The notes: generated from the sequence alone by a model not told the origin. Shown: positions 1 through 36,452, counted from the first letter of the stretch. The stretch is 64,000 nt of DNA from an uncultured Verrucomicrobiaceae bacterium (GCA_964500675.1 CAZCNY010000003.1:240129-304128); one strand, 5' to 3'. Made by a program: numbers and translations.

Positions 1-2758
1 TGTGGAGATCCGCGGTGCGCGCGGCTTGCTCCAGCGTCGCAAACAAGCCCCCAAGCTGTTGCGCACCGACATTGCCAAAACCGGATTTAGCGCTGTGTGC
101 GACGCGCGCTATTTGATCGAAGTCGCGCCGCTGAATGGCTTCGTTAAGGGTTTCCAGCGTTTGTGCGTGACTGTCGAGCAAGGAGCAAATGACTTTGCGT
201 ATTATCTCGCTGCCTTTGCTTGGATTCAGATTGAATAGACGATCGAGTACCGCCGATGAAATATGACGGTAGGTCGGCGGGGCTGCGGCTTCATCGTCGC
301 GGGGCGCGCTTACCGGCGTGGCCGGCAACCACAATTTCAACGCCGCTTCGAGCGTCGCGAATTCAAAAGGTTTGGTGATGTAATCGTTCATGCCCGCTTC
401 GATACAGCGCTCGCGGTCGCCCTTCACGGCATTCGCCGTCAGCGCGATAAGCGGCAGTGCCGCAGCCGAAATACCCAGCTCGCCGCGCACGCGCCGCGCG
501 ACTTCGTAGCCATCCATAAGCGGCATGTGCACGTCGAGCAGCAACAGATCGTAGCGATGTTTGCGCAGCGCGGCGATGGCGTCGACTCCGGTTTCGACAA
601 CATCGGTATTGAGGTTGAGCGCGGCCAGCATCGCGGTGACGACGGCTTGATTGGTGCGATTATCTTCAGCGATCAGAATGCGGTAGCCATTCTGATTTTC
701 CAGCACAAGGTTTTTCGACTGCTCCTCGACGGCGTCTGGCAATGCGTTGTCGAGCTTGCTGATGCAGCGGAACAGCTGCGTGTGCAAAATAGGTTTGGTC
801 AGCTGGCAAATAAAAAGCGCCGGGTCGATCTCCCGCGTTTCGGTTGATGATGTCAGTATCAGTTGCAAATTGCGCAGCGACTCTGTGTTGCGAATGCGTT
901 TGGCCAGCTCTGGCCCGCTGCAGCGCGGCATATGCATATCGATGATGGCGGCCGTGAATGGATGCATCGCTGCGGCGTGACTCAGCGCATCGAGCAGCGC
1001 CTCGGGTTCGACGAATATGGAGACTTCCGCGCCGAGTTCTACCAACATTTCTTGCATGATGTGCAAGTTCGTCGGGTTGTCGTCGATAACGGCGATGCGC
1101 TTGTTGACAAGGCTCGGGCGCTTCGATGGCACATGAGTTTTTTCGGTGTTGTCGACATTTTGCAGCGGTACTTTCAGCCAAAATGTCGAACCGGCTCCGA
1201 GCGTCGATTTGACGCCGATGCTGCCGCCGAGCATGGCTGCCAGCGTCTGACAGATCGCGAGACCGAGACCGGTGCCGCCAAAACGGCGCGTGGTTGAATT
1301 GTCAGCCTGCTCGAATGCATTGAAGATCCGCTGCTGTTGTTCGGGCGCGATGCCGATACCGGTGTCGCGCACAGAAAATGTGGCGAGTGTGTGTTCGTGA
1401 TTCAACGGTTCGAGTTGCAACTCGACGACGATTTCGCCATGTTCGGTGAATTTGGTGGCGTTGCTGATGAAGTTGTTGAGGATCTGCCCGATGCGCTGTG
1501 CATCGGCGCAAAAAATCAGCGACTCCGCCACCGGCATCGACAGCATCAAATCGACACCCTTGCGACGCACGGCATCGGCGGCGAGCACCACGGAATCTTC
1601 GAGCAATTCTCGCAGATCGAAATGTTCGATCGACAACTCCATTTTGCCCGCTTCGATTTTTGAAAAGTCGAGAATGTCGTTGATGAGTTTGAGCAATGTT
1701 TTACTCGAATAACTCAACGTTTCCACGAAGCGGCGCTGGCGCTCATCGAGCTCGGACATTCTCAATAGTTCGGCGGTACCAATAATGCCGTTCATGGGGG
1801 TGCGGATCTCGTGACTCATCGTCGCGAGAAACTCGCTTTTCGCGCGACTCGACGCTTCCGCTTGCTCCTTCGCTTCCTGCAAGTGGCCAATGGTTTCAGA
1901 AAGTTTAGTGTTGGTGGTTACAAGTGCGTGCGTACGCTCCTGTACTTCTTGTTCAAGTTGACCGCGATGTTCGCGCAGTTCTTTATCTTGCTCTTCGATG
2001 CGATCGAGCATGTGATTGAAACCGCTGACCAGATCGCCGATTTCATCGCCGCGTGTGCCGGCTTTATCGTTTTGAGTAACGCTGGCGCGCTGCGAATAAT
2101 TGCCGTGCTCGGACACTTGCCGCATCGTGCTTTGCAGCTCCAGCAGCGGTTGCGTGACGGTCTGTTGCAGCCGGCGCGCGATGACAAGAGCGAGCAGCGT
2201 GAGCACCGCGGTCAGCGCGATGGCAAGAGCGGTGGTGCGGGCCAGAATCTCACGCAATTGTTCCTGTTGATGCACCAGTACGAGATAGCCCAGCACATCG
2301 GAGTTTTGCCGGATCGGCGTCAGTACCAGCAAGCGTTCGTGCCATGCCGACATGGGCAGGTAGACGTGCTTCATATCGCCACGTTGGGCGAGCAGCGCGT
2401 CTTTAATTTGCATCGACATTTCTGGCGAGGTTTGAGGAAATTTGTCGGTGCGATATTCGGCCAGCGCTTTGCCATTTTTGTCGAAGGCTTCGGCAAGGCT
2501 AATTTCGGGCACGGTGCGTAATGTTGTGAGCAGCTCTTTCGCGGTGGAGCTGTCCCCGAATACAACAGCGGCTTGCAGGTTGGCGGCGATCAGCTCCGCC
2601 AGATTTTCGGTAACACCCAGATTCTCATCGCGTTGCGCGCGATATTGTGCCGAGGCCATGATGCTCAATCCCAAAACCGTCGCGAGCAACACCAAGCCGC
2701 CGCTGATGAGGACCAGTTTGGTGCGAATGCTGAGTGAGCGCCGGGATGGACTGTGCAT
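1..2758 (-). CDS. hybrid sensor histidine kinase (TM/periplasmic sensor, HAMP, HisKA, HATPase, two receivers, HPt); its 3' end runs off the window
   Basis: Absent from the ORF track because there is no stop inside the window. My reverse-strand translation from ATG 2758 stays open to position 2. It reads [21 protein letters not shown]..., H-box [18 protein letters not shown], receivers IIDMHMP and [13 protein letters not shown]...TKP, and HPt [11 protein letters not shown]. The + strand ORFs 263-847, 863-1297 and 1811-2521 are its antisense shadows. Confidence 0.85.
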
Positions 2759-2760
2759 GG

Positions 2761-3285
2761 TTAATTTTCCGGTAATGCCAGTTGCAGCAGTTTGGCGTTG
2801 ATGTTCAGATGAAATTTTTCGGCGAGCTCCTGATTGATGCGAAAGCGTTGGCGATCTTCCACCACGATGAGTTGAACCATGCCGCCGAGCGCGAGAAAAC
2901 TCGGCGCATCGCTGATGGTCAGTGTTGCCTCGTGGTTATCGGTGAGAATGGTTGAAATCGCAGCCATGCGCACGACGTCATCGGGCGCGATGTAGAGGAC
3001 GCGACACCCGGATAGATCGCCATCGCGTCGAACCGGCCGCACGGTGACGGATAATCCGTTGAGCGGTTTGCCTGCCAGTGCCATCAGTGCATCGGCGATC
3101 AAGTTATCGCCAACGGTGCAGATGTCAAAATCGGCGTTCTTGATTGCGGTGCGCGGCCACTGCACGAAACGAGCGATGTTGAAAATCACGGCCGCGCGCA
3201 GCTCTGCTTCCGTCGCAGCGCGCGCGAATGCGGGAGCGATTGCCAGCAACAGGCAAAATAGTAAGGAGTAAATAGAGGGGCGCAT
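2761..3285 (-). CDS. YfiR-like periplasmic protein (DUF4154 family)
   Basis: Signal peptide [23 protein letters not shown] is followed by [18 protein letters not shown], which is typical of YfiR/DUF4154. Its stop lies 2 nt before the kinase ATG. The track start at 3303 is a GTG overlapping the receptor stop; I prefer ATG 3285. Confidence 0.75.
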
Positions 3286-3290
3286 CGAAC

Positions 3291-5360
3291 TCAGAAATTC
3301 CACGTCGCCCTGACGTACGCGGCGCGGCGTACTTCGGTGGGCTTGGCGCCAGCCTCGCTGGAGAATTCGAGGCGCGAATTGTCGAGCAGATTTTTACCCA
3401 ATAAAGCGAGTTGTAATTGCGTCGTGATCTGCCACCTGACATTCAAATCGCAATCGAGATAACTGGGAACTTTCTGGTTTTCCAGCAGCGTTGCATTGTA
3501 TGGATGATCGAGCTCCGAAACATATTTGAGTTGCAGCTGGGTTGACCAGCGATTGGCAAAATCCCAATCGGTGCGCAGCCCCAGCTGGTGTTTCGGCGAT
3601 GAGTGATTGACGTCATCCGAAAATTTAAAGCCGGATTCCTGGATGGTAATGGAGTTCAGTGCGACATGGGTCTCGCTCCAGAATGCCTGCAGGCGCAGCG
3701 TGCTCAGCGGCGCCCAACTCGTTACCAGTTCGCCGCCATAGACGTCGCCGTCCATGGCGTTGCCGAAGGGCATTTGCGCGATAATCTGCCCATCGGGGGT
3801 GGTTGTAAAATCGCCGTTGTACTCGACGACGCGTAAGCTATCGTAGCGATTCCAGTAAAGGGCAAGGTCGATCGAGACGCTCTCGATGGGCTGTAATCGA
3901 TATCCCAGTTCGTACGACAGCATTTCCTCGGTTTTTAAATCTTTGCTTCCGCGCAGTTGCAGTGTTATCGGTAATACCCCGTATGGGGGTACATCGAATG
4001 AGCTGGGAAAATCCGCGGCGAGATCGCGATCGACGCGCGAAGGTGTGCGCGCCGCGCGCGATATGGCGCCCCATAATTTCTGGCGATCGCTCACATTCCA
4101 AAGCGCGCGCAGGCTGGGCTGGAGCACCCAATGGTGTTGTGCATCGTATTCGAGCCGCGCGCCCGCGGTTGTGCGCACGCGCCCGCCCGCAAACATGAGT
4201 TCATCCTGAAAAAATAAGCTGCTGTCGCTGTCATTTGCACTCGCGGGGTCCAGGCTGAACGCAGCTGTTGGCTTGGTTTCGTCGGTTCTATAGCGGATAT
4301 CGGCGCCCCAGACCAAGTCGTGTCCTGCCCACGGTTGGAAATGGTGCTGAAAGTCAAAATCGTAGTTGTCCTCCGATATCGCTAAAAACTCATCGCGCTT
4401 GGAATGGCTCCACGCGAACTGTGCCGACCACTCCGAGGTGAGTGTATAGGCGTGCGTGAGATTCAATAACAGCGAGTTGCCGTGCACGGTTGATGCGGGC
4501 GTGACCGCCGCGCCGACGGTAAAAGTGTTCGGAGGCAAATGTGTAGGGTCTAGCGGATTGTTATTAGTGTCCAATTGATAGGCATCGCCTTGCGCCATTA
4601 ATCGTGTGCCGGTGGCTAAATCCCAATCGCCGCGAAACCCGGTGCGCAAGCCATCCCATGCGTCGTCGGCCTTGCCTGAGGGAGATGCGGCGGAGTTACC
4701 GTGTTTCTCGCCGCTCGCATACATGCGCGCAAAGCCGCCTTCACCGATTTGAAAACCCTGCTGAGCGAGCAGGTCGCGGTTATCGTTGCTGCCAATGCTG
4801 CTCCGCAACAAGGTGCCCTGCGTTGCTCCGCTGTTGCGCGTAATGATATTGATAACGCCATTGACCGCATTGGAGCCCCATAGCGCTGCATTGGCACCGC
4901 GAATGACCTCGATGCGCTCGATGTCTTCGAACGGGATATTGTACGAATCCCAGTAAACACCGGAGAAAGTTCGTGTGTAGATGGAGCGGCCATCGATAAG
5001 CACTTCCAGCTTATTGCTCCATTGCCCGCCGAGACCGCGAATACCGATGGCCGCGCTATGGCTGTTGATGGCGCCGCCTTCGACGCCGGGCACCGAAAGC
5101 AGGAGTTCCGGCAGTGTGGTGGCGCCGGAGCGCATGATGTCGTCGTGCGTCAATACAAAAACCGCCGCTGGGGTTTCCGAGAGCTTTTGCTCTTTTTTGG
5201 AGGCGGTGGTGATCTCCATGTTCAACAGTTGATCGATGCTGAGATCGGCCAGATCGTTAGCGGCAAATACAGAATTGCATACCGCCATCAGTAACCACGG
5301 AAATAGAACGCGCTTTATTATCTTGGTTGCACCTACGCGGTAATCTTTCATAACGACCAA
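3291..5360 (-). CDS. TonB-dependent outer-membrane receptor
   Basis: 689 aa with a signal peptide. Plug-region motifs are DLSIDQLLNMEITTASKKEQ and ETPAAVFVLTHDDIMRSGATTLPELL. The rest looks like a long beta-barrel and ends in a C-terminal aromatic residue (...RATWNF). Confidence 0.9.
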   Translation of the reverse strand: MVVMKDYRVGATKIIKRVLFPWLLMAVCNSVFAANDLADLSIDQLLNMEITTASKKEQKLSETPAAVFVLTHDDIMRSGATTLPELLLSVPGVEGGAINSHSAAIGIRGLGGQWSNKLEVLIDGRSIYTRTFSGVYWDSYNIPFEDIERIEVIRGANAALWGSNAVNGVINIITRNSGATQGTLLRSSIGSNDNRDLLAQQGFQIGEGGFARMYASGEKHGNSAASPSGKADDAWDGLRTGFRGDWDLATGTRLMAQGDAYQLDTNNNPLDPTHLPPNTFTVGAAVTPASTVHGNSLLLNLTHAYTLTSEWSAQFAWSHSKRDEFLAISEDNYDFDFQHHFQPWAGHDLVWGADIRYRTDETKPTAAFSLDPASANDSDSSLFFQDELMFAGGRVRTTAGARLEYDAQHHWVLQPSLRALWNVSDRQKLWGAISRAARTPSRVDRDLAADFPSSFDVPPYGVLPITLQLRGSKDLKTEEMLSYELGYRLQPIESVSIDLALYWNRYDSLRVVEYNGDFTTTPDGQIIAQMPFGNAMDGDVYGGELVTSWAPLSTLRLQAFWSETHVALNSITIQESGFKFSDDVNHSSPKHQLGLRTDWDFANRWSTQLQLKYVSELDHPYNATLLENQKVPSYLDCDLNVRWQITTQLQLALLGKNLLDNSRLEFSSEAGAKPTEVRRAAYVRATWNF

Positions 5361-5544
5361 ACTCAGGCAATGTTATTGGAGCGCGTAAACCCGAGTTTTG
5401 CCGTGAGCGTCGCGTCGCGCAAATCGGGTGGTTTTTGATGCAGTGTAGTGTCGATTCGGTTCCTCTGCCTGCTGATCGAGCGGGGAAATAACCAGAACCG
5501 ATTTCAAATTCGAAAATCAAGAATTTAGCTATAAAAATTCAGAG

Positions 5545-6087
5545 CTAGTTTTTGACGGGATATTTTTGCAATTTGCGTTGCAGTGTGCGGCGATGCATGC
5601 CGAGTGCGCGCGCAGTGGCGGAGATATTGCCTTGATGGTCGAGCAATACTTTTTGTATATGTTCCCATTCGAGCCGGTCGACCGAATGTGGTTGGACTGG
5701 TATCGGAGGCGCGACAGCGTGAGCCTGGCCATCGAATGCTGCGAGAATCTCGTCGATTCCGGCTGGTTTGCACAGGTAATTCAGTGCGCCGCGCTTTACC
5801 GCTTCGACCGCTGTAGCGATGCTCGAATAGCCTGTCAGCATGACGATTTCAATTGTCGGCGCTATTTGTTTTAGCGCAGCGATAATGTCGAGGCCGGATT
5901 CGTGCGTCAATTTCAGATCGATTAAGGCGCGTTGCGGGTGATGAGCCCGCGCGAGTGTCAATGCTGCGTTGCCGTCGCTCGCATCGCACACAGTAAAACC
6001 GCGGCGTTGCAGCGCGCGCGTGAGCGCTTCGCGAAAACTCGCATCATCATCGACGATCAAAAAGTCGTGATTTGCCATCGCCGCCAT
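5545..6087 (-). CDS. regA: RegA/PrrA/RoxR-type response regulator (receiver plus Fis-type HTH)
   Basis: Receiver motifs FLIVDDD...IDLKL...MLTGY are present. The C-terminal HTH reads NISATARALGMHRRTLQRKL. I prefer the internal ATG at 6087 (MAAMANHDF), which lies 13 nt after the kinase stop; the track's 6207 start overlaps the kinase. Confidence 0.85.
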   Translation of the reverse strand: MAAMANHDFLIVDDDASFREALTRALQRRGFTVCDASDGNAALTLARAHHPQRALIDLKLTHESGLDIIAALKQIAPTIEIVMLTGYSSIATAVEAVKRGALNYLCKPAGIDEILAAFDGQAHAVAPPIPVQPHSVDRLEWEHIQKVLLDHQGNISATARALGMHRRTLQRKLQKYPVKN

Positions 6088-6100
6088 TTTTGATTTTCCT

Positions 6101-7390
6101 TCAGATTTTCCGTTGTGAATTTGCGTCCACAATCGGTAATCGCAGCACGGCTTCGGTGCCGCCCGCAGGGTGGTTGAATAAACGAATATCTCCGCCGCAG
6201 CGCTCAATGGTGGCGTGACTCAAAAATAAACCGAGGCCCAGGCCGCTGCGTTTATTCGTGACAAACGGTTTACCCAATTGCTCGGCGATGTCGAGCGGAA
6301 TGCCGGGGCCGTGATCGCGAATACGCAACTCGATCATTCGCGTATCCCGGCCCAGCTGTAATTCGAGCGGCCCGCTCCGCGTGTCGGCAGCATTATCGAG
6401 CAAATGCATGAGCGCTTGCCGTAAAGCTTCGTCGATGCGAATTTGCGGCATTGGTGTCGAATCGATATTCAGTTGATAGCGCGCGTCGGGGCGCACGATC
6501 TGCCAGCGTTCGAGCAACTCTTGAAGAAATACATCCGCGCGCTGCGGAATATATTGTTGTTGACGATGTGTCTCCGCGGTATCGACCAATTTTTTCAGTG
6601 TTGCGCGGCATATTTGCGCCTGTTGTTTGAGTGTGGCGATATCGACGCGCAATTGCGCATCAGTGTTATGTGTTACATCCAGTTCATGTTGTATTTCATC
6701 TAACACCAGCGTCATGGTGTTGAGTGGCGTGCCGAGTTCGTGCGCGGTGCCTGCGGCCAGTGTCGCGACTGCCAGCAGTTGTTCACTGTGCAGCGCATTT
6801 TCGCGGCGCATGTTTAATTCGAGTTGTTGCTCGCGCAGTGCGTTCGCCATGCGCACGACCACAATCGCAATCAGCGCAGCCGACAGCGCGAAATTGCACC
6901 ACATACCCAAGATATGCGGATTGATAGCGCCGTTGTGGTGGATATGTTCGGGCGAGAGGGAAAATAACGGCAGCGGCACATAAAAAAATAACAGCGCGCT
7001 GTAAGCGCCGATGCAGATCAGCGCAAGAGTTAACGTATAGCGCCACGGCAAAATCGTCGCCGCGATCACCAGCGGCACCAGGTAGTACGACACAAACGGA
7101 TTGGTGGCGCCACCGCTGGCGTAAAGCAGCGTGCTGAGACCGCCGACATCGATGAGCAATTGCGAGAAGAATTCGAGATCGGTGACAGGCCATGACTGAC
7201 CGAGGCGCCAGAAGGTGAAAATGGTTGCGAGCAGCATCGCGCATACAGTGCCGATCAGCCACGGATAATCCAGCGGCGCACGCAGCCAACCGAAGGCATA
7301 CAGCATGGCGGCGATCTGCGCGGTGATAACGATGAGCCGTGCCAGCGCGAGACGTTGCAGGTTAGCTCTGACTGCGGTCAACGACGCCAT
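6101..7390 (-). CDS. regB: RegB/PrrB/RoxS-type redox-sensing histidine kinase
   Basis: Multi-TM N-terminus contains GGATNPF, matching the GGxxNPF quinone-site motif of RegB. The H-box is AAGTAHELGTPLNT, with a Cys downstream (QAQICRATL). An ATPase domain follows (GLGLGLF). Confidence 0.85.
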   Translation of the reverse strand: MASLTAVRANLQRLALARLIVITAQIAAMLYAFGWLRAPLDYPWLIGTVCAMLLATIFTFWRLGQSWPVTDLEFFSQLLIDVGGLSTLLYASGGATNPFVSYYLVPLVIAATILPWRYTLTLALICIGAYSALLFFYVPLPLFSLSPEHIHHNGAINPHILGMWCNFALSAALIAIVVVRMANALREQQLELNMRRENALHSEQLLAVATLAAGTAHELGTPLNTMTLVLDEIQHELDVTHNTDAQLRVDIATLKQQAQICRATLKKLVDTAETHRQQQYIPQRADVFLQELLERWQIVRPDARYQLNIDSTPMPQIRIDEALRQALMHLLDNAADTRSGPLELQLGRDTRMIELRIRDHGPGIPLDIAEQLGKPFVTNKRSGLGLGLFLSHATIERCGGDIRLFNHPAGGTEAVLRLPIVDANSQRKI

Positions 7391-7575
7391 AACACCTGTA
7401 AAGACATAACAACCATAAATAAAAGAGAAAGTTTTTGGGAGGTGGAAGATTATACGCGATCGCTGTATCGCGCTCGCTGCGGCGCAATGTCGCAGGCGAT
7501 ATCAGGTGCGATTCATTTTTTCGTAACGTAAATAGCGCAGCATCGAGCGCGACGATTTTTCTAGGAGAACGCACG

Positions 7576-9042
7576 ATGAACAAAAAAATGCTGCCGTTAT
7601 TTATTTCTGCTGCGTTGCTGGCGGGTTTGGCGCATGCCGAAGTCAACTTGATCGCGATCGGTGGCATCGATGGCGCGTATGAGGACTTGGCCACGAAAAC
7701 CGCCGCGCCGCTTGAAAATGGCGTGCCGGGCAATCGCCTCGGCGGCATCGGTTCCGGTTTGGCGTATGCGGGCGGTAGCAGCTTTCTGGCGCTGCCGGAT
7801 CGCGGACCGAATGCCAATGCCTACAACAGCGCGGTCGACGACACCGTGTCATACATCGCGCGCTTTCAAACGCTCAATTTGAGCCTCGCGCCGAGCGATG
7901 CGGGTTCGGCACTGCCGTTCACGCTGACGCCAACGCTGCGCGACACCACCTTGTTGTCGAGCCGCGAACCGCTGGTTTACGGCAGTGGCGATGGTCTCGG
8001 TTATCGCATCGATGGCGTAACGCCGCTCGGCTCCGGCGCGCCCGCGCTCAACGCCATAAACCATACACACTACTTCACGGGCCGCTCGGATAATTTCGAT
8101 CCGTCGCAGCCGTCGACGAATCCGCTCAATGCGCGTCTCGATCCCGAAAGTCTCCGCGTGTCTCCGGATGGCCGCCGCGTCTATGTGTCCGATGAATACG
8201 GTCCTTACGTCTATGAATTCGACCGCGTCAGCGGTCAGCGTCTGCGCGCCTTCGCGCTGCCGGCCAATCTCGCGATCGCGACGTTGAGCGCGCAGAAAGG
8301 TGTCGAGATTGCCAGCAATACGGTAGGTCGCGTTACTAACAAGGGCATGGAAGGTCTCGCGATTACTCCCGATGGCCGTATGCTTGTCGGCATCATGCAG
8401 GCCAATCTCGAACAGGATAAGAAAAAGAGTTTGCGCCTCGTTACGATCGATACGCGCACGGGCGCCAGCCATGAATACGCCTACAAGCTGACCGACGGTT
8501 CGGGCGTGAGCGACATTGTCGCGGTCAATGATCATCAGTTTCTGGTCGATGAGCGCGATGGCAATGGTCTGGCGGATACACCGCTGCTAACTGATACCGC
8601 GTCCGCAGCCAAGGTGAAAAAATTGTATTTAATCGATCTCGATGGCGCCCAGGATGTCACCGATTTGAGCGGCGATCTTTCCGCCTACGCAGTTAGCAAG
8701 AGCGCGACGCCATTTCTCGATGTCGTCGCCACACTCACTGCAACGGGTATCAACAGCTATTTGATTCCGTCGAAAATCGAAGGCATCGCGTTCGGGCAGG
8801 ATATCGTTATCAACGGCGTTACCAAGCACACCTTGTTTATCGCCAACGACAATGATTTCCTGGCGACGATCGCGGATCCGCTGAAATTGCCGGGTGATCC
8901 GAGTCGCGGCATGGTGGCGAACCCGAATCAATTTTATGTATTCGCGTTCGACGACAGCGATTTGCCGGGTTATGTTCCGCAGAAAATCCGCGAACTTAAA
9001 GATGACGGTGGCTGCGGTTGGCACGGCAAATTCGATTTTTAA
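7576..9042 (+). CDS. secreted protein of the 'esterase-like activity of phytase' family
   Basis: AGGAGA RBS at 7564-7569 precedes ATG 7576. Signal peptide is MNKKMLPLFISAALLAGLAHA. Repeated beta-propeller-like blocks occur (EGLAITPDGR, SKIEGIAF, FIANDNDF). The family call is from pattern memory only. Confidence 0.6.
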   Translation: MNKKMLPLFISAALLAGLAHAEVNLIAIGGIDGAYEDLATKTAAPLENGVPGNRLGGIGSGLAYAGGSSFLALPDRGPNANAYNSAVDDTVSYIARFQTLNLSLAPSDAGSALPFTLTPTLRDTTLLSSREPLVYGSGDGLGYRIDGVTPLGSGAPALNAINHTHYFTGRSDNFDPSQPSTNPLNARLDPESLRVSPDGRRVYVSDEYGPYVYEFDRVSGQRLRAFALPANLAIATLSAQKGVEIASNTVGRVTNKGMEGLAITPDGRMLVGIMQANLEQDKKKSLRLVTIDTRTGASHEYAYKLTDGSGVSDIVAVNDHQFLVDERDGNGLADTPLLTDTASAAKVKKLYLIDLDGAQDVTDLSGDLSAYAVSKSATPFLDVVATLTATGINSYLIPSKIEGIAFGQDIVINGVTKHTLFIANDNDFLATIADPLKLPGDPSRGMVANPNQFYVFAFDDSDLPGYVPQKIRELKDDGGCGWHGKFDF

Positions 9043-9116
9043 AATCAGCGTATTACTTTTTAAAACCGACGCACTATCAAGGGTGTAGCGCACCGCGCCA
9101 GACCCTGTTTCGCGAC

Positions 9117-9151
9117 ACGGCAGCGTCAATACATACCGCTGCCGTTTTTTG
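9117..9151 (+). terminator. rho-independent terminator after the phytase-like gene
   Basis: Stem ACGGCAGCG (9117-9125) pairs with CGCTGCCGT (9137-9145), followed by TTTTTT. Confidence 0.6.
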
Positions 9152-9299
9152 TTTTCCGCATATCTCTCTTGCGCATCGCTCCCTGCTGTGTGGCGGTTTC
9201 GAGTATCATTACGCGCTTTTTCCGGCCTGCGGTCCAGCTATGTATGTCTCGATACTTCGGGAGCATTTGCGCAGCGCGGGCAACGATAGAGATGTGACT

Positions 9300-9380
9300 A
9301 TGGCCGATAGCAAATTGCTGGATGAAGTGAAAGCGCGACGCACGTTCGCTATCATCTCCCACCCCGACATTATCCTCTGA
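9300..9380 (+). pseudogene. prfC: displaced native 5' end of prfC (26-codon stub)
   Basis: Encodes [23 protein letters not shown], then IIL-stop. It is colinear with the first 23 residues of the intact RF3 at 10926 ([23 protein letters not shown]). Its codons are GC-rich like the host. Confidence 0.85.
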
Positions 9381-9494
9381 GTCATGTGTAGCCAACCCAA
9401 GACATATTCCCAATTAATCTTTTGTTTTTATTGAAAAATAATTCCTCCGCCGCGACAATCTGAGTCAAGCCAAGACAAGCCGAGACAGCAAAAA

Positions 9495-9554
9495 CGTGTA
9501 CACATCCGTGTACATAAAACGGCAATTTGGCGCTTCCGAAATATCGTGTACACA
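9495..9554. repeat. three CGTGTACA(C/T)A palindromic motifs at the left end of the element
   Basis: GTGTACAC at 9496-9503, GTGTACAT at 9508-9515 (12-bp spacing) and GTGTACAC at 9546-9553, the last 14 bp before the integrase-fragment ATG. Confidence 0.75.
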
Positions 9555-9566
9555 GCCGGGGAGTTT

Positions 9567-9773
9567 ATGGCGATTTCAGATGCGTGGTTGAAGGCCAACC
9601 ACGGAAAGACACGCGCATCACGCGAAGAGAGAATGGACCGTGATGGTTTTGGTATTCGCATTACGCCTGCTGGAAAAATAATTTTTCAGATGCGTTATCG
9701 CTACAACAGCAAAAATCCAAAGCGTCTTGATGTTGGCTCCTATCCTTTAATGTCTTTAAAAGAGGCGCGTGTA
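9567..9773 (+). pseudogene. P4-type tyrosine integrase, N-terminal arm-binding fragment only
   Basis: MAISDAWLKANHGK...DGFGIRITPAGKIIFQMRYRY...KRLDVGSYPLMSLKEARV follows the DUF4102/P4-integrase N-terminal pattern. Homology stops at a T8 run (9779-9787), and no catalytic domain follows. Confidence 0.7.
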
Positions 9774-9836
9774 TCCGCATTTTTTTTGTGCGGGAGGAAA
9801 GTGATATTAACGATGCAGATACATATTTCGGGGTCG

Positions 9837-10055
9837 ATGACAATTAAGCAGCTCAAGCAGACTTTATTTGAGAAATTGAACGAAGTGCACGACGAATATG
9901 CAGTAGGCCATGTGAAAGGTGCGACGCTGTATTTTCACCCCACCGACGAAATTGGCCAAGAAGTAATTTTGATGAAGGCAGGTCGGCGCGTGAATAAAAT
10001 TCTCACGAACGGCCCTTACAAATGCGCTGCGGACGAATACTCCATGGGGGGCTAA
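9837..10055 (+). CDS. hypothetical small protein (72 aa; alternative start at 9813)
   Basis: It is in the same frame as the integrase fragment but unrelated in sequence (MTIKQLKQTLFEKLNEVHDEY...). It is AT-rich element DNA. I recognise no family. Confidence 0.35.
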   Translation: MTIKQLKQTLFEKLNEVHDEYAVGHVKGATLYFHPTDEIGQEVILMKAGRRVNKILTNGPYKCAADEYSMGG

Positions 10056-10061
10056 TTAATT

Positions 10062-10334
10062 ATGAAGATACCTAATTATATTGGACTGGAAGAAGCGAGA
10101 ACAACGCTCGCAGAAATTGGTGTTCACCTCTCACAGAGGCAAATCAAACGAGCAGCAGAACCCGATGCTAACGGAAAAAGAAAGCTCCCGTTTTTTGTTG
10201 ATCCCATTGAAGGAAAACTGAAAATCGAAAAGGGCGTTCTCCTCGAAATCTATACGCGCTGCCAAGTGCATGCCGAAAATAATGCACATATAAACCCGGC
10301 CAATATTCGAGAAGTGTTTGACCCCAGAAGGTAG
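10062..10334 (+). CDS. hypothetical small protein, possibly an Xis/AlpA-like DNA-binding protein
   Basis: 90 aa with a G-rich RBS directly upstream. The segment IGVHLSQRQIKRAAE...GKRKLPFFVDPIEGKLKI loosely resembles excisionase-type HTH/wing patterns. This assignment is weak. Confidence 0.35.
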   Translation: MKIPNYIGLEEARTTLAEIGVHLSQRQIKRAAEPDANGKRKLPFFVDPIEGKLKIEKGVLLEIYTRCQVHAENNAHINPANIREVFDPRR

Positions 10335-10351
10335 CTGCGATATGGGGAATC

Positions 10352-10798
10352 ATGTCGGATATCAGGAAAAGAAAAGGCACTAAAGGCACGACCTATCAGG
10401 TACGTTACGCCAACCCGCATACAAAAGCGGGCTATTCCTACAAGTCATTCAGCACCCTTGCACAAGCGAAAGCGTTCAGTGAAGACGGCAGCACTCGCAA
10501 GACAGCGCGTGAGCACGGCTCAATCGTATCTGTCGAAGACGCAATACAGCGCTGGTTAGATACTTGCGAAAAAGAAGGGCGCAGCGGCAAAGACCCGGTT
10601 TCAAAGGCTACTTTTGCAGTGTACGAGACACGCGCGGATATTATGCGCGCCTATACCCTTTTTTTACATGCGCTCAAGAAACATATTGGATATGATCTTC
10701 AAAAAATGAACGAACGCCGGGCGCAGTACCTTGCGGCACTTCGCGCTGCGGACGCAGGAGGTTACGCTCCGTTACTGGCTTTTACGGGCGCGGAGTAG
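10352..10798 (+). pseudogene. second, different tyrosine-integrase N-terminal fragment
   Basis: KGTKGTTYQVRYANPHTKAGYSYKSFSTLAQAKAF looks like an arm-binding domain. VEDAIQRWLDTCEKEGRSGKDPVSKATFAVYETRADIMRAY looks like a core-binding SAM-like domain. There is no catalytic R..HxxR..Y region, and the C-terminal tail is unrelated. Confidence 0.6.
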
Positions 10799-10887
10799 AG
10801 GTTTTCGCATTAAGAGCTGACGCGGATTCAGGTATCATTGCGGCCCTTTCACCGGGACACTTCATTGGCCCGGGGTACTTTGCAATT

Positions 10888-10911
10888 TGTGTACATATGC
10901 GTGTACACATG
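10888..10911. repeat. two (C/T)GTGTACA motifs at the right end of the element, just upstream of the functional prfC start
   Basis: GTGTACAT at 10889-10896 and GTGTACAC at 10901-10908. They have the same 12-bp spacing as the left pair but in mirrored order. Confidence 0.75.
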
Positions 10912-10925
10912 TCGGGTAGCTTTCA

Positions 10926-12530
10926 ATGTCAGACCAGAATTTAATTAATGAAATCAATAGCAGAAGAACTTTTGCTATTATATCGCACCCCGATGCCGGT
11001 AAAACCACGATCACCGAGAAGTTGTTGTTATTCGGGAATCTGATTCAGATCGCAGGCACGGTGAAGGGCAAGAAATCCGATCGCCACGCGACCTCCGATT
11101 GGATGGCGATGGAGCAGGAGCGGGGAATTTCGGTGACCTCTTCCGTGATGCAATTTCCGTATCGCGAGCGCATCGTCAATCTGCTCGATACGCCCGGTCA
11201 CGAAGATTTCTCGGAAGATACTTATCGCACGCTCACTGCAGTTGATTCGGCGCTGATGATTATCGACGGCGCCAAAGGCGTTGAAGAGCGCACGATTAAA
11301 TTAATGAATGTGTGTCGTCTGCGCGATACGCCGATTTTAAGTTTCATCAACAAACTCGACCGCGATATTCGCGACCCGATCGAATTGCTCGATGAAATCG
11401 AAAGCGTATTGAAAATTGCCGCAGCGCCGATCAATTGGCCGATCAGCTCGGGTCCGGATTTTCGCGGCGTGTACAACCTTTACACCGACACGATTCACGT
11501 GTTCGTGAGAGGTCAGGGCCATACGATTCCCGACGATATTCAAATCAAAGGACTCGACAGCGTAGAAGCGCGGCAACTGCTCGGCGACGAAGTCGATAGT
11601 TTTGCCGAGCAGATCGAGCTCGTGCGCGGTGCGAGCCACGAGTTCAACCTCGAAAGCTATTTGGCCGGAAAATTAACGCCGGTATTTTTCGGCACTGCGC
11701 TCGGCAATTTCGGCGTGCGCGAAATGCTTGATGGTTTTGTCGAGTGGGCGCCCGCGCCATTGCCGCGCTTTGCTGACCTTACTGGAAAAGGCGAAAGTCG
11801 TGAAGTCGCGCCGACCGAAACCAAGTTTTCGGGTTTTGTGTTTAAAATCCAGGCCAATATGGACCCGAAACATCGCGACCGCATTGCATTTCTGCGCATC
11901 TGTTCTGGCACATACACCAAAGGTTTGAAAATGCGCCATGTGCGCATCGGCAAAGAGGTAAAAATTGCCGATGCGGTGACGTTCAAGGCGGGCGAGCGCG
12001 AAATGGTCGAGGAGGCGTTCAGCGGCGACATCATCGGTCTGCACAATCACGGTACGATACAAATAGGCGATACGTTCACGGAAGGCGAGGAATTAAAATT
12101 CACGGGCGTGCCGCATTTCGCGCCGGAAATGTTCCGCCTGATTCGGTTAAAGGATCCGATGAAATCAAAGCAGCTGCAAACGGGCTTGAAGCAGTTATCG
12201 GAAGAGGGTTCGACGCAGGTATTCATGCCGTTGCGCAATAACGATCTTGTCGTCGGCGCGGTCGGTATGTTGCAGTTCGAAGTTGTCTCGTATCGCTTGA
12301 AAGATGAATACAAAGTCGATGCGTTTTACGACACCGTGAATGTTTATACCGCGCGCTGGATCGAATGCAGCGATGCGAAAAAATTGGAAGAATTCAGGCA
12401 GAAGGCTTACGAAAACCTCGCGCTCGATGGCGGTGGTCATCTTACCTATCTCGCGCCGACGCGCGTGAATCTGGCGCTGATGGAAGAGCGCTGGCCGGAA
12501 ATTCAATTCCGAGCCACGCGCGAGCACTAG
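10926..12530 (+). CDS. prfC: peptide chain release factor 3 (hybrid gene: element-derived first ~23 codons)
   Basis: 534 aa with GTPase motifs [20 protein letters not shown] and NKLD, and full-length RF3 colinearity. Confidence 0.97.
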
Positions 12531-34919: not shown

Positions 34920-35075
34920 CGCCAATTTTCCCTTGCCAGTTCGTTCAATAATTTCTCTACCTGCCGCGCGCTTTGCGTCGATGCTACTATCGCGACTGCA
35001 TTTGTATTATCGCGGCTAGCTTTGAACGATCCCAGCCGGGCCACCCTCGCGGCCCCGACAATAAGACGAGTTGGT

Positions 35076-36452
35076 ATGCATATTCACATTCTCGGCATCT
35101 GCGGTACCTTCATGGGCAGTCTCGCGATTTTGGCGCGCGAGCTCGGACACACTGTGACGGGCTCCGACACGGGTGTGTACCCGCCCATGAGCACGCAGCT
35201 TGAAGCGCAGGGTATTCGTCTGCGGGAAGGCTACGATCCCGCTCATCTCGATCCGCAACCCGATCTCGTCGTCATCGGCAATGCGCTGTCGCGCGGCAAT
35301 CCCGCGGTAGAGTACGTGCTCGATCGCGATATTCCGTATGTATCGGGGCCGCAGTGGCTCAGCGATCAGGTGCTGCAAAAACGCTGGGTATTGGCGTGCG
35401 CCGGCACGCACGGCAAGACCACGACAAGCAGCTTGTTGACGTGGCTGCTCGAAGCCAATGGCTACAACCCCGGCTATTTAATCGGTGGCGTGCCCGAGAA
35501 TTTCGCGGTGTCGGCGCGCCTCACCGACAGCCATTTTTTTGTGATCGAGGCGGATGAATACGATTGCGCATTTTTCGACAAGCGTTCGAAGTTTGTGCAC
35601 TACCGGCCGCGCACAGCCGTATTAAATAATCTCGAATACGATCACGCCGATATTTTTCCCGACCTCGCCGCGATTCAGCGCCAGTTTCACCATCTCGTGC
35701 GCACGATTCCGGCGAGTGGCCGCATTATTTATCCCGCGTCGGAAAATGCGCTGCAAGAAGTGCTCGCGATGGGGTGCTGGTCCGAGTGTGAAACGACCGG
35801 CATGCGCGAAGACGTCGATTGGCAGGCACGTTTGCACGCCGATGATGGCAGTGCATTCGACGTGTTGCAGCGCGGTGAATTGCGCGGCCGCGTCGAATGG
35901 AATCACACCGGTTTGCACAATGTGCAGAATGCGTTGAGCGCGATCGCGGCCGCGCATCATGTCGGCGTGCGCGCGGCCGATGCGATTGCAGCGTGCAACG
36001 ATTTTGCCGGCGTGAAGCGCCGCATGGAGTTGCTCGCCGCTATCGATGGCATCCATGTGTACGACGATTTTGCGCATCACCCAACCGCGATCGCGACCAC
36101 GCTTGCAGGCCTGCGCGCGCGCGTTGGCCGAGAAAATATCATCGCTGTCATCGAACCGCGTTCGAATACGATGCGACTCGGCGTGCATTTGCAAAAACTG
36201 GCACCATCGACACAAGCTGCCGACCGCGTGATTTGGTATCAGCCGCCGGGACTCGATTGGTCGCTCGGTGAGGTGATTGCGGCGAGCGCGAAACCGGCGC
36301 AGCTTTATGACAATATCGATCGCATCGTCGCCGATCTAACGCTTCAACTTAAGCGCGACGATCACGTCGTATTTATGAGCAACGGCGGTTTTGGCGGTAT
36401 TCATCAGAAACTTGTGCGCGCGCTGCAGCAGCGCACACAGCAGCAACAATGA
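35076..36452 (+). CDS. mpl: UDP-N-acetylmuramate:L-alanyl-gamma-D-glutamyl-meso-DAP ligase
   Basis: MHIHILGICGTFMGSLA...YPPMSTQLE...GTHGKTTT is colinear with E. coli Mpl. Confidence 0.92.
   Translation: MHIHILGICGTFMGSLAILARELGHTVTGSDTGVYPPMSTQLEAQGIRLREGYDPAHLDPQPDLVVIGNALSRGNPAVEYVLDRDIPYVSGPQWLSDQVLQKRWVLACAGTHGKTTTSSLLTWLLEANGYNPGYLIGGVPENFAVSARLTDSHFFVIEADEYDCAFFDKRSKFVHYRPRTAVLNNLEYDHADIFPDLAAIQRQFHHLVRTIPASGRIIYPASENALQEVLAMGCWSECETTGMREDVDWQARLHADDGSAFDVLQRGELRGRVEWNHTGLHNVQNALSAIAAAHHVGVRAADAIAACNDFAGVKRRMELLAAIDGIHVYDDFAHHPTAIATTLAGLRARVGRENIIAVIEPRSNTMRLGVHLQKLAPSTQAADRVIWYQPPGLDWSLGEVIAASAKPAQLYDNIDRIVADLTLQLKRDDHVVFMSNGGFGGIHQKLVRALQQRTQQQQ

Follow-up and report, generated by a model that had tools for sequence, protein, structure and literature searches.

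Why does one bacterial locus hold two versions of the start of prfC, the gene for peptide chain release factor 3 (RF3), lying 1.6 kb apart on the same strand? The question was raised by the initial annotation of a 64-kb stretch of DNA (GCA_964500675.1 CAZCNY010000003.1:240129-304128), which is referred to here as the window and numbered from its first letter. The evidence below indicates, with a probability of roughly 0.85, that the intervening 1.62 kb (9368-10985) is the remnant of one integrative genomic island that inserted in prfC at its 5' end, and that the gene now stands on island DNA.

Two versions of the RF3 start

Translation confirmed that each version comprises 23 codons up to the residues HPD, as had been claimed. 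The first (9300-9368) continues into IIL and a stop codon (9378-9380), and is stranded; the second (10926-10994) consists of AT-rich codons and leads into an intact RF3 of 534 aa, in which Pfam identified the GTP_EFTU, EF-G_D2 and RF3_C domains. The two starts have 15 of 23 residues and 43 of 69 nucleotides (62%) in common. Their final common DNA is CACCCCGA, at 9360-9367 and 10986-10993, in agreement with the initial annotation. To the left of this octamer the copies differ, one being of host type and the other of element type; they differ again to the right, with the types reversed. This exchange of types across CACCCCGA is as expected from a crossover inside the octamer.

The resemblance of 9300-9368 to prfC proved significant when its strength was checked, as had been advised: the segment is 78% identical across 23 residues to the independent RF3 N-terminus of a related locus, L002 (E = 5.6e-9). 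When the L002 N-terminus was used to search the 64 kb, the best matches other than RF3 starts had E-values of at least 0.04, and the stranded start is therefore not a chance similarity. No third copy of the prfC 5' end was found in the window by this search.

Base composition separated the two copies. The stranded codons have a GC content of 55% (70% at third codon positions, GC3), the remaining prfC 53% (GC3 = 64%) and the working codons 33% (GC3 = 35%). DNA identity to L002 is 75% for the stranded copy, near the 79% of the gene body, while it is only 62% for the working copy. The interval between the starts (9369-10925) has 47.1% GC overall, and no other stretch of equal length in the 64 kb is as low (mean 56.0%, standard deviation 2.5%). 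A figure of 37-40% had been given for it from two 100-nt samples, which applies to some 100-nt windows (9% are at or below 40% GC) and not to the whole; the low-GC character of the interval stands.

A second assembly (Logan, SRR11845634) was 100% identical across positions 1-11888 of the window; therefore, the arrangement is not peculiar to one assembly. The 90%-identity cluster that contains the RF3 of the window has members labelled Spongiibacteraceae, and RF3 homologues place the host in the Spongiibacteraceae/Cellvibrionales.

A truncated integrase of a prfC-targeting family

The interval carries the N-termini of two tyrosine recombinases, Int1 and Int2 (Table 1). Both had been proposed from the sequence alone, and homology searches showed that both are real. 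Int1 matches Arm-DNA-bind_3 (PF13356/DUF4102, E = 1.1e-11) and aligns with residues 1-69 of integrases of ~400-412 aa at 57-63% identity. These identities derive from an exhaustive search, which was used in place of a word-indexed homology search that returned only two short proteins for the 69-aa fragment. The closest characterised integrase is Int of phage cdtI (49% identity over 68 residues, E = 1e-21); the family member P0146 is 41.6% identical to cdtI Int at full length, and cdtI Int is its best phage match.

A genome-wide scan with family integrases provided the 80 closest genomic loci, to which all family counts refer. They came from Pseudomonas, Acinetobacter, Marinomonas, Cellvibrionaceae, Burkholderiaceae, Methylobacter, Shewanella and others. 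In 47 of the 80, int was preceded on the same strand by a truncated 5' end of prfC, at a distance of 222-256 bp in 46 cases and 146 bp in one; the spacing in the window, 222 bp, is within this geometry. After the core, these truncated ends run into unrelated residues and mostly reach a stop within a few codons. Only one prfC-type core was present in each fetched locus. The Int1 remnant is 65-72% identical to the integrases of prfC-inserted loci.

In the window, int1 is cut after codon 69, and no intact family integrase or PF00589 catalytic domain of Int1 was found in the 64 kb. A weak integrase-like match at 35166-35321 is probably due to chance; it lies inside an open reading frame (ORF) of 476 aa (35022-36452) that has no other integrase similarity. 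Databases commonly contain truncated copies of the family.

About 30 of the 80 integrase relatives had no prfC fragment upstream (L027, L039-L041, L043, L054, L056, L059, L064, L066-L069, L071, L072, L074-L076, L079-L082, L084, L086), many of them from Acinetobacter and including a probable A. baumannii prophage; the A. baumannii integrase match (H5/L086) is not beside prfC. The family therefore includes clades with other target sites. In Vitreoscilla stercoraria (L058, 5850-10290), an IS-invaded element of ~4.3 kb, which carries an IS3-type transposase as well as an intact integrase of the family, is situated directly upstream of an intact prfC. The stranded prfC 5' end is not kept there, which points to another decay route.

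Attachment sites, arm repeats and leaders

A comparison of the 17-bp cores with published sites of the ICEs (integrative and conjugative elements) known as SXT/R391 had been suggested, and its outcome was positive. The repeats published for ICEPmiChn5, an SXT/R391 element, are ATTATTTCCCACCCTGA and ATCATCTCCCACCCCGA (PMC10130350), and window positions 9351-9367 are identical to its attR repeat. The same positions differ by 1-2 nt from the attP (ATCATCTCTCACCCTGA) and attB (ATCATCTCTCACCCGGA) repeats of ICESh392 (PMC6541609), and the location of the repeat is the same.

The layout of the attL arm recurs, motif by motif, in about 28 related loci from many genera. The conserved arrangement comprises CTCTGAGTCA/..GACA repeats, a GTACA-N7-GTACA pair ~150 nt past the core and a further GTACA just before int; these repeats are presumed to be arm-type integrase sites. 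The 64 kb contain just two copies of GTACA-N7-GTACA, one at each end of the interval (9498-9514 and 10891-10907). An equivalent pair is found 20-22 nt before the ATG in L001, L089 and the attP of phage cdtI. Both cores and all GTACA repeats are intact in the window.

Alignment with relatives showed that a TATCAT block ~90 nt 5' of the ATG is common to the native and element-borne copies. The native copy sits within the block GGTATCAT-GCGC-GCTTT, which every relative examined has retained upstream of prfC, and is likely to be the -10 box of the native promoter; the element-borne copy may likewise act as a promoter. In the element-borne leaders of the window (10833-10925) and of L001 (5240-5343), the GTACA pair falls after the presumed -10 box and before the ATG. 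In phage cdtI, the pair is ~20 nt before the ATG of the RF3 mimic (L088, 2150-2209), and at attL a GTACA stands just before the start of int. Integrase binding at GTACA could, speculatively, also regulate prfC and int. No Rfam match was found anywhere in the window.

Contents of the interval

Table 1. Features at the prfC locus, numbered from the first letter of the window
Feature	Position	Strand	Description
TATCAT, likely -10 box of native prfC promoter	9204..9209	+	91 nt upstream of stranded ATG; from alignment
Stranded native prfC 5' end	9300..9380	+	23 host-style codons followed by element-derived IIL-stop; no GTACA pair upstream
attL core ATCATCTCCCACCCCGA	9351..9367	+	Codons 18-23, IISHPD; homology to prfC stops after CACCCCGA
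Element arm of attL	9368..9566	+	CTCTGAGTCA/..AGACA repeats; GTACA-N7-GTACA at 9498-9514; third GTACA at 9548-9552, before int start
Int1 remnant	9567..9773	+	First 69 codons (arm-binding domain); tyrosine integrase of prfC-targeting IntSXT/cdtI type, full family size ~400-412 aa
Deletion junction 1	9774..9815	+	Int1 codon 69 joined to spacer before orf79 ATG; int1 match ends 9773-9788
orf79	9816..10055	+	Intact small conserved element gene; homologues begin MQI.. (9816)
orf90	10062..10334	+	Small element gene, conserved and intact; identity of 55-70% in 12 relatives
Int2 remnant	10352..10660	+	First ~102 codons; second tyrosine recombinase, 391-393 aa, after orf90 in intact elements
Deletion junction 2 (approximate)	10657..10685	+	Int2 codon ~102 joined in frame to the 3' end of a different gene
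Probable tail (final ~35 codons) of Fic-type 'mobile mystery protein B' gene	10685..10798	+	Right element end; TIGR02613
Element-borne promoter-like site TTAAGA-17-TATCAT (putative activity)	10810..10838	+	Consensus scan; 88 nt upstream of working ATG
GTACA-N7-GTACA pair of attR arm	10891..10907	+	19 nt before working ATG
Element-derived first 23 codons of working prfC	10926..10994	+	33% GC; attR core inside
Working hybrid prfC (RF3, 534 aa)	10926..12530	+	Pfam; 84-92% identity to closest listed RF3 (P0002-P0020)
attR core ATTATATCGCACCCCGA	10977..10993	+	Inside working prfC start

Two small genes, orf79 and orf90, are full length and free of frameshifts. The former is 38-52% identical to the gene at the equivalent position in 12 intact relatives of the element, while orf90 has 349 relatives in metagenome contigs, many of them away from prfC. 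Neither gene had a match in Pfam, NCBIfam, PHROG or the sequences of the PDB. A single-sequence AlphaFold model of orf90 (predicted local distance difference test, pLDDT, 66) had a beta-alpha-alpha-beta-beta-alpha topology; a fold search returned nothing significant, the best match being the RacA winged helix (E = 0.6). Speculatively, orf90 may be a winged-helix DNA binder or a recombination directionality factor.

Unlike Int1, Int2 does not have the PF13356 arm domain. Its remnant is 47-56% identical to full-length PF00589 genes in the three loci scanned (L010, L012 and L114), and residues 1-109 of the reading frame at 10352-10798 are 45% identical to the N-terminus of a site-specific integrase of Sinorhizobium meliloti (E = 1e-22).

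Junction 1 is without a stop codon; consequently the ORF at 9546-10055 reads in frame from the Int1 arm-binding domain through a 14-codon spacer into orf79. This ORF has 169 aa, and was called as 162 aa in L091. The possibility of a recurrent fusion of the Int1 N-terminus to orf79 was rejected, the short database proteins that match the Int1 fragment being heterogeneous truncations. At junction 2, the Int2 match stops at 10657 and a match to TIGR02613 begins at residue 112 (10685), covering profile positions 153-185 of 186, i.e., the last 33 (E = 7.3e-6).

In 12 intact relatives (L010, L012, L013, L015, L016, L019, L020, L021, L024, L025, L029 and L035), a tblastn search with the ORFs of the interval against the fetched loci showed int1 followed, after 0.5-5.3 kb, by orf79, orf90 and int2 on one strand, in the order of the window. 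Their hosts are Pseudomonas, Burkholderiaceae, Marinobacterium, Thiodiazotropha and Micavibrio. Therefore, one element with two internal deletions explains both recombinase fragments, and the comparison identifies the scar as a single decayed element.

Related intact islands reach more than 10 kb to the right of orf90. In L010, L012, L114 and nine others (e.g., L010, 7739-9489), the prfC-specific integrase is found together with a conserved module made up of orf79, orf90 and a tyrosine recombinase of 391 aa. The cargo of L012 includes a HATPase_c_3/HSDR_N_2 protein. That of L114 (4279-8631 and 12032-18162) includes a 1449-aa RTX-repeat protein and a trio of SNF2 helicase, DUF4391 and N6_N4 methylase genes; by its domains, the trio resembles a restriction- or defence-type system.

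Proposed history of the locus

The following sequence of events would account for the locus. The P4-like tyrosine integrase of the island, Int1, would belong to a clade that targets the 5' end of prfC (including that of phage cdtI and, according to the literature, those of SXT/R391), and would have recombined the island attP with the 17-bp core in prfC codons 18-23. This attP would have carried a promoter of its own, 23 codons that mimic the beginning of RF3, and arm repeats (GTACA) flanking the core. Insertion would have left the native promoter and first 23 codons (9204-9380) stranded at attL, and would have coupled the promoter-like region of the island (10810-10838) and its 23 codons (10926-10994) to the prfC body at attR. 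Two deletions, of presumed order and mechanism, would have followed: one from Int1 codon 70 to just before orf79, and another starting at Int2 codon ~103 and extending as far as the final ~35 codons of the Fic-type gene beside attR. Together, these would have removed the catalytic domains of both recombinases, all cargo and the transfer genes. Joining 10800-10993 to 9368-9566 would rebuild an attP of cdtI type; excision would restore ...CGCTATCATCTCCCACCCCGATGCCGGTAAAACC... (the native start and prfC body) and yield a circle junction of ...GCTATTATATCGCACCCCGACATTATCCTCTGAG....

With self-excision lost, RF3 would now be made from island-derived DNA. The gene had been described as essential and as fixed on mobile-element DNA. 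The former description is not supported, since prfC is dispensable in E. coli, where Delta-prfC strains are viable and have been used as recipients (PMC2791158; PMC5812530). The latter holds in so far as self-excision is impossible, there being no intact integrase in the 64 kb, but overstates the case in that the att cores and arm repeats are intact and excision in trans is conceivable.

The prfC locus in related genomes

Relatives retain the synteny of the locus: a minus-strand response regulator and histidine kinase (HK) pair, variable genes, prfC, and a pseudouridine synthase gene downstream. Most of these loci have a small PEP-CTERM-type gene between prfC and the pseudouridine synthase gene. 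The prfC starts of L002 and L090 are GC-rich and without a GTACA pair; in L002, the HK gene is followed after 204 bp by MTDSKLLHEIETRR.. (a start of the type MTDSKLL..), which resembles an empty site. In L001, where RF3 is 92% identical, the start is AT-rich, has a GTACA pair, and is immediately preceded by genes for a PF03432 relaxase and a type IV coupling protein (T4CP), much like an occupied site cut by the end of the contig. In L089 (9860-10069), a member of the same 90% cluster as the RF3 of the window, the start is AT-rich (32% versus 56% GC) and is preceded by GTACA-N7-GTACA 20 nt upstream. An integrase, element genes and a stranded native start were all absent within 10 kb, and L089 looks like a more decayed state, with an orphan element-derived 5' end.

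Searches aimed at the species itself returned little: the phytase-like neighbour of prfC recovered only the genome of the window, and an exact look-up of the RF3 in assemblies gave no matches. An empty site had been expected to show the phytase-like gene, the native promoter and a prfC with the start MADSKLL, in that order; of the relatives, L002 resembles an empty site.

Several observations weigh against the proposed history. No empty site came to light within the species; the nearest RF3 whose start is of DSKLL type, that of L002, is only 86% identical, and its locus has no phytase-like gene. Metagenome contigs gave 0 matches to MADSKLLDEVKARRTFA, a degenerate pattern representing the DNA of the native N-terminus. 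RF3 N-termini vary widely even inside the 90%-identity cluster, and therefore protein similarity is not enough by itself to tell native starts from element-derived ones. In plasmids and fetched loci, tblastn lent no support to the Fic-type tail, and the right side of junction 2 is tentative, being based on a single partial NCBIfam match. Among prfC-inserting integrases that have been characterised, the direct comparison covered cdtI Int. The assignment of native and element copies adopted here rests on GC content, GTACA repeats and flanking genes.

Among eleven RF3 proteins that are >90% identical overall (P0001, P0273-P0282), there were eleven different N-termini, of differing lengths. This diversity could result from repeated replacement by elements, or simply from weak constraint. 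The phytase-like gene of the window (PF13449, 7435-9042, probable start 7573) lies between the histidine kinase gene and the native prfC promoter. It has homologues of 75-84% identity in very distant taxa (Variovorax, Opitutaceae), and none of the relatives examined carries it at this position. The contents of the HK-to-prfC interval were different in every relative (DNA ligase/Fapy, an acyl-CoA dehydrogenase cluster, OmpA and others), so the interval looks like a hotspot of gene turnover.

Alternative explanations

The interval retains both attL and attR, with cores and GTACA arm repeats at either end, and its integration and transfer genes have been lost; both recombinases are truncated, and no relaxase, T4CP or type IV secretion system genes were found within it. 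Therefore, the scar falls under the definition of a cis-mobilizable element (CIME) given in PMC5704250. This raises the possibility, to which a minor likelihood is attached, that it is a live CIME and not a dead scar: a related island could provide Int (and Xis) in trans to excise or co-transfer it, or it could be a docking site for accretion. Such an account overlaps with the history proposed above and differs from it in present-day activity only. Besides the definition itself, the intact cores and GTACA repeats and the full-length orf79 and orf90 favour it, as do the frequency of related intact elements in Gamma- and Betaproteobacteria and the occupied site of a close relative, L001. However, the cognate integrase is absent from the 64 kb, a pattern search of metagenome contigs did not find an excised or restored junction, and neither sequence nor fold searches supported orf90 as a directionality factor, while the intact small ORFs may merely reflect recent decay. 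The site in the window is the 5' end of a protein-coding gene, whereas CIMEs that arose by decay of ICEs or IMEs, such as those of streptococci, occupy the 3' end of a tRNA or protein-coding gene; due to the 5' position, the host gene depends on element DNA for its promoter and start.

It is slightly less probable again that the scar has been retained and is functional, through being mobilized in trans, through docking or blocking prfC-targeting islands, or through arm-binding proteins that modulate the expression of RF3. The points behind this suggestion are the complete att sites, the intact orf79 and orf90, the ORF that runs in frame from the Int1 arm domain into orf79, and the position of GTACA between the -10 box and the ATG. 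More widely, orphan 5' ends of element type, of which L089 has one, would suggest repeated and permanent replacement of the RF3 promoter and N-terminus by mobile elements in Spongiibacteraceae.

The initial annotation had attributed the interval to two successive elements. On that account, unrelated elements inserted in tandem or serially and then decayed, each leaving an integrase fragment. The fragments are of different integrase types, with and without PF13356, and for SXT/R391 both tandem arrays and deletions have been described at prfC (PMC5812530). Nevertheless, the account is disfavoured by the intact relatives and is very improbable: every fetched locus with any of orf79, orf90 or int2 (12 of 12) has all three and int1 as well, in the order and orientation of the window, and each locus has one prfC-type core, a third prfC 5' copy being absent from the window also. 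If the prfC start had been duplicated locally, or if the assembly were chimeric, a short coding segment could lie twice on one strand 1.6 kb apart without any mobile element, but this is scarcely credible when the copies are just 62% identical in DNA and very different in GC, the interval holds two integrase N-termini and element genes, and the geometry recurs in 47 independent genomes and, identically, in a second assembly.

Comparison with known systems

SXT is reported, by Hochhut and Waldor in 1999, to supply a new prfC 5' coding end and promoter. The remnant of a single island, as preferred here, agrees with SXT/R391 ICEs in its target, the prfC 5' end, in the position of the 17-bp core and in restoring the prfC reading frame. 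In both, the integrase is the first gene beside attL, and its arm domain, DUF4102/PF13356, is the one by which the IntSXT subgroup is defined (PMC8138268). There are three differences. The SXT/R391 backbone of 47 kb and 52 core genes (tra, setCDR, bet/exo and others; PMC5812530) is wholly absent, the interval consisting of two integrase fragments, orf79, orf90 and the Fic-type tail. Intact relatives of the element carry a PF03432 relaxase and T4CP (L001), RTX, SNF2, DUF4391 and methylase genes (L114), and the orf79-orf90-int2 module. Lastly, SXT hosts are Vibrionaceae and Enterobacterales, in contrast to Spongiibacteraceae here. Since there is no SXT backbone and the relatives carry different modules, the element is not a member of SXT/R391. 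The SXT-like integration logic that had been recognised in the sequence is thus correct with respect to the 17-bp core, the stranded native start, the supply of a promoter-like region and 23 codons by the element, and its decay, but does not extend to family membership. A published SXT int primer for the polymerase chain reaction (PMC8386438) had no match in 85 loci (80 with family integrases), nor in viral contigs. Near-identity of Int1 to IntSXT (about 98-99%) is unlikely; 69 codons survive, and the closest characterised sequence is cdtI Int at 49%.

Int1 nevertheless appears to belong to the DUF4102-bearing IntSXT subgroup. The N-terminal DUF4102/Arm-DNA-bind_3 domain is present at 9567-9773. 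By similarity and gene neighbourhood, it clusters with prfC-inserting integrases: 47 of its 80 closest genomic relatives have a truncated prfC 5' end beside them, and cdtI Int heads the phage matches of the family. An intact PF00589 domain with its active-site tyrosine is missing.

Phage cdtI is itself placed among the SXT integrases, as an inserter at prfC, in the literature (PMC8138268, Smyshlyaev et al. 2021). Its attP consists of TTGTACATATGATTGTACA, an ATG, an RF3 mimic of ~21-23 codons with a stop, and the core, with GTACA repeats and int ~190 bp further on. Phage cdtI and the Shiga toxin (Stx) prophages in E. coli prfC have a homologous integrase and share this attP layout with the window. 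They are complete temperate phages, whereas the scar and its closest relatives are without phage genes, and the copy in the window is a 1.6-kb remnant in which both recombinases are truncated.

The islands that target dusA reportedly insert at the 5' end of the gene and supply a replacement 5' end (attributed to Farrugia et al. 2015). Their insertion logic is analogous and concerns a conserved housekeeping gene, although the target gene and the integrase clade are different; the likeness is one of description only. These islands are touched on in PMC8409611.

Implications

It is well supported that the scar is a decayed example of a known and widespread kind of prfC-targeting element, and known biology is not overturned by it. 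In genome annotation, scars of this kind account for spurious short ORFs, for pseudogenes with an 'integrase domain' and for aberrant N-termini of RF3. Targeting of the prfC 5' end with a built-in mimic of the RF3 start extends beyond SXT/R391 ICEs and E. coli phages, to a large group of little-described islands from Pseudomonas, Acinetobacter, Marinomonas, Cellvibrionales, Burkholderiaceae and other taxa, many of which carry orf79-orf90-int2 as a second recombinase module. In the present case, a core translation gene would have been left permanently dependent on the promoter and N-terminal codons of a mobile element after that element had lost its means of exit.

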